This document shows, in pieces, positions 11,983 to 12,669 of a stretch of DNA of 24,423 nucleotides. Every line of letters begins with the position of its first letter. Position 1 is the first letter of the stretch. The position numbers were made by a program, and so were the translations under genes. Under the pieces are notes generated by a model. The model ran no database searches. It was not told where the DNA came from and saw only the letters and a list, made by a program, of their open reading frames with translations. Source of the DNA: a virus (lineage: Duplodnaviria > Heunggongvirae > Uroviricota > Caudoviricetes); the IMG/VR virus record IMGVR_UViG_2531839474_000007, positions 1 to 24,423 of that record. One strand, 5' to 3'.

Positions 11983-12237
11983 TCGATGAATAAACAATAC
12001 GAACTGGTTGTAAAATGAATATTTCTAACTGAAAAAACGTTCCATGAGGTAAGAAAAGGTCACAGGCAATCAATAACAGGACGTGATGAAAGACCCTTGC
12101 ATTTGTGCGCTTTCTCTTTAGATAGCAGCAGATACTGAAAATCTGAGTTGTCGGGGAGTCAGGGATACAGCTGTGCAAGAGTTGGTCATTGTGATTCCAT
12201 TGAAATCCTGTATGCCATGAAGGGCAGGATTTTATGG

Positions 12238-12552
12238 CTACCTGAGCTTTGGTGATAGTAAGTTGAAAATTCGCATTTTTTGCTGACATGCGTAACGAGA
12301 ATCCCATAAGCAGGGAGGACTTAATTCTTCATTAACCCATGCGTTGATATTATGTTTCAGCCGTTGAAGCATCAGCGGTGTTAATGTTGTGGTAATAATA
12401 TCCAGCGTTTTATGTGAGATCTTACCGTAAGGGTCTGCAAGAATGCTGCTTGTTGCTTCGTTATTATCTGCCATCAGAAGAAGTAACTCTGATTTAACGT
12501 TTTCTGTCATTAGTTGTAAAAATCTTCTGCGCAAACTTTCTTTACTGTTCAT
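12238..12552 (-). CDS. hypothetical protein (104 aa) in an AT-rich opposite-strand insert between S and R
   Basis: Longest minus-strand ORF in a 690-bp AT-rich gap; no family recognised; weak Shine-Dalgarno; an overlapping alternative ORF (11945..12307) also exists. Confidence 0.35.
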   Translation of the reverse strand: MNSKESLRRRFLQLMTENVKSELLLLMADNNEATSSILADPYGKISHKTLDIITTTLTPLMLQRLKHNINAWVNEELSPPCLWDSRYACQQKMRIFNLLSPKLR

Positions 12553-12669
12553 TTATATGGCTTCATTTGTTGTAATCTGCTGCGTCTCAAGGGATATGTT
12601 TATGAGAGCGACCATGAGTGTTGGATTATATACCTAACATATCAAGGGATTAGAAATCGATAAATCCCC

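Follow-up and report, generated by a model that had tools for sequence, protein, structure and literature searches.

A conserved opposite-strand accessory gene beside a ydfR-family relic at the holin–endolysin junction of an Escherichia coli lambdoid prophage

The bor gene of phage lambda is a moron that lies beside the lysis genes, is transcribed against the late operon and is expressed in lysogens, and its product is an outer-membrane lipoprotein with a signal peptide. Moron is used here in the sense of Juhala et al. 2000 (quoted in PMC4104026). In E. coli K-12, the Qin gene ydfR (DUF1327, PF07041) occupies the slot between a class II holin gene (essQ) and a lysozyme gene (rrrQ); the three genes lie on one strand with gaps or overlaps of no more than 4 bp, and a published report describes binding of YdfR to the catalytic half of RNase E and co-purification of RNA with it (PMC13232886). 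The Shiga toxin 2 (Stx2)-converting phage 86 carries an intact gene of this kind, gp05, and beside it gp06 (orf6, YP_794053.1), which encodes 104 amino acids (aa) and lies before the endolysin gene on the opposite strand. Here, a homologue of gp06, termed gene B, is analysed in the gap between the holin gene S and the endolysin gene R of a 24,423-nucleotide stretch of viral DNA (IMG/VR record IMGVR_UViG_2531839474_000007), the whole of which is referred to below as the window. Gene B is WP_000138558.1, identical to ECs_1097 of the Sakai prophage Sp4 and to EDL933_RS06280; like gp06, these genes are annotated as "hypothetical" or of "unknown function".

The window copy of B resembles gp06 in length, place and strand and differs from it in its surroundings: phage 86 keeps its DUF1327-containing gene intact, whereas the window has only a relic, and the phage-86-type leader of B carries a terminator-like hairpin and a strong Shine–Dalgarno sequence, neither of which is found in the window type. 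Compared with the K-12 arrangement, B occupies the same slot as ydfR but is encoded on the other strand and has no sequence similarity to it; of a ydfR-family gene the window keeps the first ten codons (11986-12015), in a relic that shares the S/R-strand orientation of ydfR but is a pseudogene. With lambda bor, B has in common that it is a small accessory gene at the lysis end of the late operon, in opposite orientation, with its own promoter, expressed from the prophage and absent in some relatives. The two are not related in sequence, however, and B encodes a soluble helical protein without a signal and lies between S and R, whereas bor follows Rz.

Taken together, the data are best accounted for by a composite gap at an S21/R21-type holin–endolysin junction, consisting of a ydfR-family relic and an autonomous B cassette expressed in lysogens, and a probability of roughly 0.55 is given to this explanation as a whole. 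The left part (11983-12237) is a dead late gene of the ydfR family on the S/R strand, and the right part (12238-12669) is a self-contained cassette of ~430 bp, made up of B and its own sigma-70 promoter and pointed against the late operon. This orientation implies that B is on in the lysogen, where S and R are silent, and convergent late transcription, antiterminated by Q, should shut B off after induction. The original prediction had regarded the entire insert as a moron. B itself is a moron-type accessory gene by its polymorphic presence, its own promoter and start on the opposite strand, its expression in lysogens and its deviant, AT-rich composition, with no recognisable terminator; the insert, however, is composite rather than a single moron, because a decayed gene of the ydfR family makes up the left 255 bp.

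At 39.0%, the GC content of the 687-bp gap (11983-12669) is below that of R (54.3%), S (52.2%) and the window as a whole (50.2%), and an equally AT-rich composition is reached by only 6.3% of stretches of this length. Within the cassette (38% GC), the B coding sequence has 38.4% and the spacer between B and R 37.6%. These values bear out the original description of some 690 bp of AT-rich DNA, and the two opposite-strand open reading frames (ORFs) that it listed, of 104 aa and, overlapping it, 120 aa (11945-12307), both exist. On the plus strand, only two ORFs of at least 30 aa lie within the gap, encoding 35 aa (12148-12255) and 64 aa (12443-12637). The window is part of an E. coli lambdoid prophage, and many E. 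coli chromosomes match its S-to-R stretch at 100% identity. In 623 records the 687 bp are found with at least 99% identity, and at least 80% of their length is carried by 626 of 5,426 complete E. coli genomes, which indicates that the gap is a real, widespread allele and no assembly artefact; carriers include O157:H7, O26, O111, O145, O103 and O55:H7 strains. Rfam searches (gathering thresholds for the whole window, E-value mode for 11900-12750) found no RNA family in the gap. The small RNAs (sRNAs) described in the anti-sRNA and Pas sRNA papers lie outside the S–R gap, either 3' of moron genes or in the esterase–holin interval.

B is a real protein-coding gene. Across six homologues with 49-79% aa identity, the ratio of non-synonymous to synonymous substitution rates (dN/dS) is 0.14-0.39, with a median of 0.185 and synonymous sites near saturation, and the B frame contains no stop codon, compared to 3-11 in each of the other five frames. 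The version of B in the Prokaryotic Genome Annotation Pipeline (PGAP) is a 90-aa "hypothetical protein" (12238-12510) that begins at an internal ATG. The 14 residues N-terminal to that start are conserved among the homologues, and in the phage-86-type subfamily the ATG of the 104-aa form is preceded by a strong GAGGA Shine–Dalgarno sequence; the 104-aa start is therefore the better call. The pattern of selection, the frame-specific lack of stops and the conserved N-terminus, together with a confidently predicted fold and a mapped transcription start site, establish B as a gene. It is accordingly hardly credible that the minus-strand ORF arose by chance in AT-rich junk, even though its PGAP entry has a shorter start and no product name and the window copy has no clear Shine–Dalgarno sequence.

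Equally hard to credit is a homologue of ydfR turned to the other strand, a relationship on which the original prediction had taken no position. B and K-12 YdfR give no alignment in BLASTP and lie on opposite relative strands, and DUF1327 matches none of the 23 B family members at E ≤ 10, whereas phage 86 gp05, used as a positive control, matches at E 3.7e-45. The family of ydfR is nevertheless represented in the gap, by the relic that adjoins B on the S/R strand. Two other frames were rejected as genes. The 120-aa minus-strand ORF, which had been offered as an alternative to B, is interrupted by a stop in L060 (L-numbers denote related loci compared with the window), shows mostly non-synonymous drift and lies largely over the pseudogene relic. 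The 64-aa plus-strand ORF, formerly ECs1098, has stops in L057, L058 and L060.

The B protein (~12 kDa) is modelled by AlphaFold2 as a five-helix bundle, with a predicted local distance difference test score (pLDDT) of 89.3 and a predicted template modelling score of 0.81 from a 23-sequence alignment. It appears soluble, with a maximum 19-residue Kyte–Doolittle hydropathy of 0.66-1.23 in four homologues and an isoelectric point of 6.2-9.3, and no membrane segment, signal, or recognisable enzyme or DNA-binding motif was found. A holin, an antiholin or a membrane-bound lysis regulator is not indicated, as B has no transmembrane or signal-anchor-release (SAR) segment and its gene is antisense to the late operon. 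The earlier statement that the ORF matches no recognised family holds for Pfam (E ≤ 1), NCBIfam and PADLOC, in which neither window B nor any of the 23 members has a match, but not for PHROG: residues 1-102 fall in phrog_1853 (E 3.5e-47), a family of no known function and the sole family match, and B also has the named counterparts ECs_1097 and phage 86 gp06. In PADLOC-DB v2, which covers anti-phage defence and toxin–antitoxin systems, no match at E ≤ 1 was obtained for B (window and L004) or for its neighbour gene A, described below (L004 and L006). Searches of the PDB and BFVD returned no structure resembling B beyond generic helical matches, and a sequence profile search of the PDB gave nothing meaningful. 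The B profile has a weak HEAT-like match to a NACHT-HEAT protein (hhalign probability 29%, E 5.8e-4, 55 columns), and one family member weakly matches HEAT_EZ (E 0.87).

Homologues of B are few: clustering at 90% identity leaves 49 groups from 5.8 billion proteins, a set of 1.84 billion yields 21 representatives, and all those with a named source come from E. coli. Of 29 distinct variants of the protein, a few carry frameshifts or truncations and the majority are intact. No relative of B emerged from two scans of GTDB species-representative genomes; the alignment used for the first was too divergent for pattern building. No literature on ECs1097 was found.

B is transcribed in lysogens from its own promoter. 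Start sites were taken from Cappable-seq of EDL933 (PMC10469882, Table S5; gene 6280), which covers eight uninduced conditions, namely exponential and stationary phase in lysogeny broth (LB), M9, acid and salt. A start at EDL933 position 1272853 on the B strand is present in all eight conditions, and a second start at 1272864 in two of them, stationary LB and stationary acid. Since the EDL933 sequence is identical to the window here, these positions correspond to the minus-strand starts at 12629 and 12618, respectively (Table 1). The original prediction had made the case for the ORF depend on transcription from the minus strand, and such transcription is thus found in every condition sampled. 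The promoter that fits the primary start, P1, was missed by a simple promoter scan and was revealed later via the published start site. The end of its -35 hexamer and the R start codon are 5 bp apart, and its hexamer regions are the best-conserved part of the leader, common to both B subfamilies, the rest of the leader being different. The perfect -10 hexamer of P2 is conserved in six of the nine lineages of the window-type subfamily. The 5' untranslated region (UTR) of B shows no significant structure (z 0.21).

The phage-86-type leader (L010 3269-3396; also L011, L082 and L134) contains the terminator-like hairpin GCCAGCGGTAGGACACTGGCG, with TTTTT after it. The hairpin is placed downstream of the conserved promoter region and ahead of the strong Shine–Dalgarno sequence, which suggests control by attenuation. 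Weak starts were also reported on the other strand in EDL933 (PMC10469882). Two lie before R, at 1272896 and 1272908 (window 12574 and 12586, plus strand), each in a single condition, and R may therefore receive a little transcription that is independent of pR'. Another lies within and antisense to B, at 1273088 (window 12394, plus strand), in five conditions.

The position of the B promoter raises the question of whether the cassette acts mainly in cis, with antisense RNA or transcription damping leaky read-through into the SAR endolysin gene or uncoupling S and R, so that lysis timing is tuned and the protein is secondary. P1 abuts the R start codon and is active in every condition tested; B always lies directly upstream of the next late gene, which is R in E. 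coli and a holin or HNH gene in distant relatives; its transcript, with no terminator behind it, may run antisense into S; and the hairpin of the phage-86-type leader hints at regulated read-through. A cis function, however, needs neither the strong selection on the protein (dN/dS ~0.19, synonymous changes saturated, frame open) nor a confidently predicted fold, and the B mRNA, which begins at 12629, starts 3' of the ribosome-binding region of R and cannot mask it. A mainly cis-acting cassette is therefore considered unlikely.

The left part of the gap is identified by comparison with related prophages, in which the space between S and R is filled by a 185-333-aa gene on the S/R strand, termed A, and by B tail to tail on the other strand. 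A belongs to the YdfR family. The gp05 protein of phage 86 (268 aa) combines DUF1327 with a coiled coil and a C-terminal domain that is conserved, and shorter forms of A are without the DUF1327 part. In the window, the start of this gene survives as ATG AAT AAA CAA TAC GAA CTG GTT GTA AAA TGA, where intact genes have GGA or GGG in place of the stop, as seen by alignment with K-12 ydfR, phage 86 gp05 and the DUF1327 gene of phage PhiR12_2. The match to the gp05 start is 86% over 36 nucleotides (nt) (blastn, E 8.6e-8), and fragments further downstream weakly match the coiled coil and the C-terminal domain of A proteins (blastx, E 1.4e-4). Relative to the intact genes in L003, L004 and L006, ~300 bp have been deleted, stops are present in all three frames, and the relic diverges two to three times faster than the adjoining B coding sequence.

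The S–R junction of PhiR12_2 (L012 2186-2903) holds a DUF1327 gene and a different opposite-strand ORF of 86 aa, which is annotated as "DUF1823" on a weak match (E 0.023). The slot may have acquired antisense ORFs repeatedly.

Across the related loci, three arrangements were found: S-A-R, S-A-B-R and S-relic-B-R. In all of ~90 loci, B lies opposite to the S/R strand and upstream of R at a distance of 118-147 bp, the two genes being divergent. A is present at 76 loci; at 52 of these B is missing and R follows A after 40-46 bp, and at the other 24 B is interposed and R lies at +453 to +456. One junction without B retains TTATCTGTTGC, the last 11 nt of B, which indicates that B was deleted there. 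Conversely, A has been lost and B is intact in three lineages, namely the window type, L062, and L068/L069/L072. Of the 5,426 complete E. coli genomes, 674 carry B (626 of them the A-less window type) and 786 the C-terminal domain of A.

To follow B after the loss of A, the window was compared with L057, L058 and L060. The B coding sequence is the best-conserved segment, with 96.5-97.8% identity to the window, compared to 92-94% for the ydfR relic, 89-92% for the B–R spacer, 87-88% for R and 73-88% for S. Synonymous and non-synonymous codon differences in B number 5/2, 6/3 and 7/4, where 21% synonymous changes would be expected under neutrality (p 0.003-0.006), and this excess shows that B was kept under purifying selection after A had been lost in cis.

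These data bear directly on whether A and B form an obligate pair of the toxin–antitoxin or defence kind, of which the window would hold a broken copy on its way to loss. The convergent, overlapping pairing is conserved in distant relatives, as described below, and A is indeed degraded in the window. However, A occurs without B at more than two-thirds of its loci and B without A in at least three lineages, B has remained under purifying selection after the loss of A, and the A-less structure is old enough for the relic to have diverged by 6-8% with B still intact. In addition, PADLOC gives no match, and classical type II toxin–antitoxin pairs are co-directional operons. An obligate pair is therefore regarded as very improbable.

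The pairing itself nevertheless appears to be old. Two divergent metagenomic relatives of B, P0051 and P0060, have 34% and 22% aa identity to window B, and each converges tail to tail on a gene with the A motifs GRCM..LQLAAEIE and PPFK, the two genes overlapping by 18-33 nt. These pairs are located upstream of the holin gene, the holins are of the lambda-S type (PF05106) or the HP1 type (PF16080), the endolysin is different, and the flanks resemble Gifsy-type and Citrobacter phages. Because the pairing recurs beside other holin families, the convergent pair, rather than either gene alone, looks ancestral from these sequence comparisons, and in E. coli each gene is often found alone.

As neither an enzyme signature nor a DNA-binding signature is seen in B, binding to another protein is its most plausible mode of action. 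Its target might be A-type late proteins, which B would neutralise when they are leaky, when they come from co-resident prophages or when they are brought in by incoming lambdoid phages, in an immunity- or exclusion-type role. This assignment is tentative; it is suggested by the conserved tail-to-tail pairing, the opposite expression programmes of the two genes and the retention of B as an orphan. About equally likely, and likewise doubtful on its own, is that B is a stand-alone lysogenic-conversion or anti-phage factor directed at a host protein or at some part of unrelated phages, its place next to A then reflecting only a shared insertion hot spot. Such a factor fits the selection on B alone in the commonest allele (626 genomes), its constitutive transcription in lysogens, the usual separation of A and B in E. 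coli and the variety of inserts tolerated at the S–R junction, as in PhiR12_2. A coincidence at a hot spot, however, does not explain why the pair is found in distant phages upstream of the holin gene and beside other holin and endolysin families, and the known defence families are unmatched.

A more specific version of the antagonist role, considered rather unlikely, is that A and B constitute an unrecognised module of lysis cassettes, in which the DUF1327 part of A would engage RNase E, its C-terminal domain would be the effector, and B would be a specific, constitutive antagonist; A would be made with the lysis genes and B constitutively by the prophage. If so, an orphan B, as in the window and in most O157:H7 strains, would protect lysogens against the A proteins of co-resident or superinfecting lambdoid and Stx phages, and this would be a new kind of inter-prophage immunity against a late function.

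Several observations weigh against the composite-gap explanation and the role of B attached to it. That A and B are mostly apart in complete genomes argues against an obligate partnership, and the function of B is deduced from its context. No terminator is predicted on the minus strand past 12238, where there is just an 8-bp hairpin without a U-tract, and window B has no obvious Shine–Dalgarno sequence before it. PADLOC yields no match, and the model of A (DUF1327 plus the A domain, 296 aa) is poor (pLDDT 52), which makes it unusable for a fold search or for modelling an A–B interaction. Finally, no evidence of translation was retrieved, the searchable ribosome profiling (RIBOseq) tables for Sakai covering small genes only and not including ECs1097.

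Table 1. Features of the S–R region of the window.
Feature	Position	Strand	Description
Gene B	12238-12552	-	104 aa, soluble five-helix protein; dN/dS, open frame, AlphaFold2 model, phrog_1853
B 5' UTR	12553-12629	-	77 nt; primary start 12629, secondary start 12618
Promoter P1 of B	12636-12664	-	-35 TTTATC (12664-12659), 17-bp spacer, -10 TATGTT (12641-12636); fits start 12629
P2 -10 hexamer	12625-12630	-	TATAAT, perfect; secondary start 12618 lies 7 nt downstream
Decayed ydfR-family gene	11983-12237	+	Now non-coding; DUF1327 start, coiled-coil and C-terminal A domain fragments
Surviving ydfR-family start	11986-12018	+	ATG plus nine codons (MNKQYELVVK), then TGA; intact genes GGA or GGG (Gly)
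Holin gene S	11776-11982	+	S21-type class II holin (pinholin), 68 aa; Pfam PF04971, E 1.9e-32
Endolysin gene R	12670-13203	+	R21-type lysozyme, 177 aa; PF00959, E 7.6e-24

The genes that flank the gap are labelled "class II holin family protein" (S) and "lysozyme / rrrQ" (R) by PGAP. The N-terminal segment of R is rich in glycine and alanine, as is typical for SAR endolysins, and R is presumably one of these, by analogy with R of phage 21. At the start of the holin gene (11764-11778), the window reads ATA CAT CAG ATG, compared to ATG TAC CAG ATG in L003 and L004. S thus is without the upstream methionine of the dual-start (antiholin/holin) motif, so that only the 68-aa form is possible and the usual antiholin product would be absent.

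Just 5' of the holin gene (within 11400-11775), a strong intrinsic terminator with an 11-bp stem and a T-run is located at 11694-11720 on the plus strand. The slot between esterase and holin genes is the reported site of the prophage sRNAs PasA, PasC and PasD1 (bioRxiv 10.64898/2026.05.13.724894); Rfam gives no family there around the terminator, and no test was aimed at a Pas-type sRNA. Further upstream, two copies of an insertion sequence (IS) of the IS3 family (IS629-like) are present, at 10079-11292 (plus strand) and around 2197-2313 (minus strand), each with an ALIL frameshift pseudoknot (RF01497, 120.9 bits; 10360-10476 and 2197-2313). The former separates the holin gene from the 616-aa esterase gene (8165-10015), a place between pR' and the lysis genes, and may cut the lysis cassette off from late transcription. 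On the plus strand, the window also carries a hok/sok antitoxin RNA (3365-3539; RF01794, 114 bits), an STnc100 sRNA (7855-8027; RF02076, 100.8 bits) and a tRNA cluster (6835-7084) called by ARAGORN as Met (CAT anticodon; Ile in the annotation of relatives), Arg and Arg, a set of features typical of Stx-like prophages in the interval from Q to the lysis genes. In Sakai Sp4 (L013, 1,183,365-1,186,375) and its EDL933 counterpart (L179, 1,270,696-1,273,706), the segment S-B-R-Rz-pchA is inverted relative to the rest of the prophage and bounded by IS629 and ISEc8; in the window, it is collinear with the upstream genes.

Lambdoid prophages commonly carry uncharacterised morons. B is a conserved, expressed accessory gene, and a new type of system is not indicated on present evidence. 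The gains are modest, comprising a corrected start for B (104 rather than 90 aa), a mapped promoter, the recognition of a 255-bp ydfR pseudogene and the removal of two spurious ORFs, including ECs1098. B is nonetheless carried by about one in eight complete E. coli genomes, among them O157:H7 Sakai and EDL933, has no name and has no known fold relative. In lambdoid and Stx-type prophages, accessory genes of the lysis cassette can influence lysis, the release of toxin or competition among phages, and the apparently ancestral pairing of B with the C-terminal domain of YdfR-family proteins provides a testable lead for both families, at a time when YdfR has only just been linked to RNase E.

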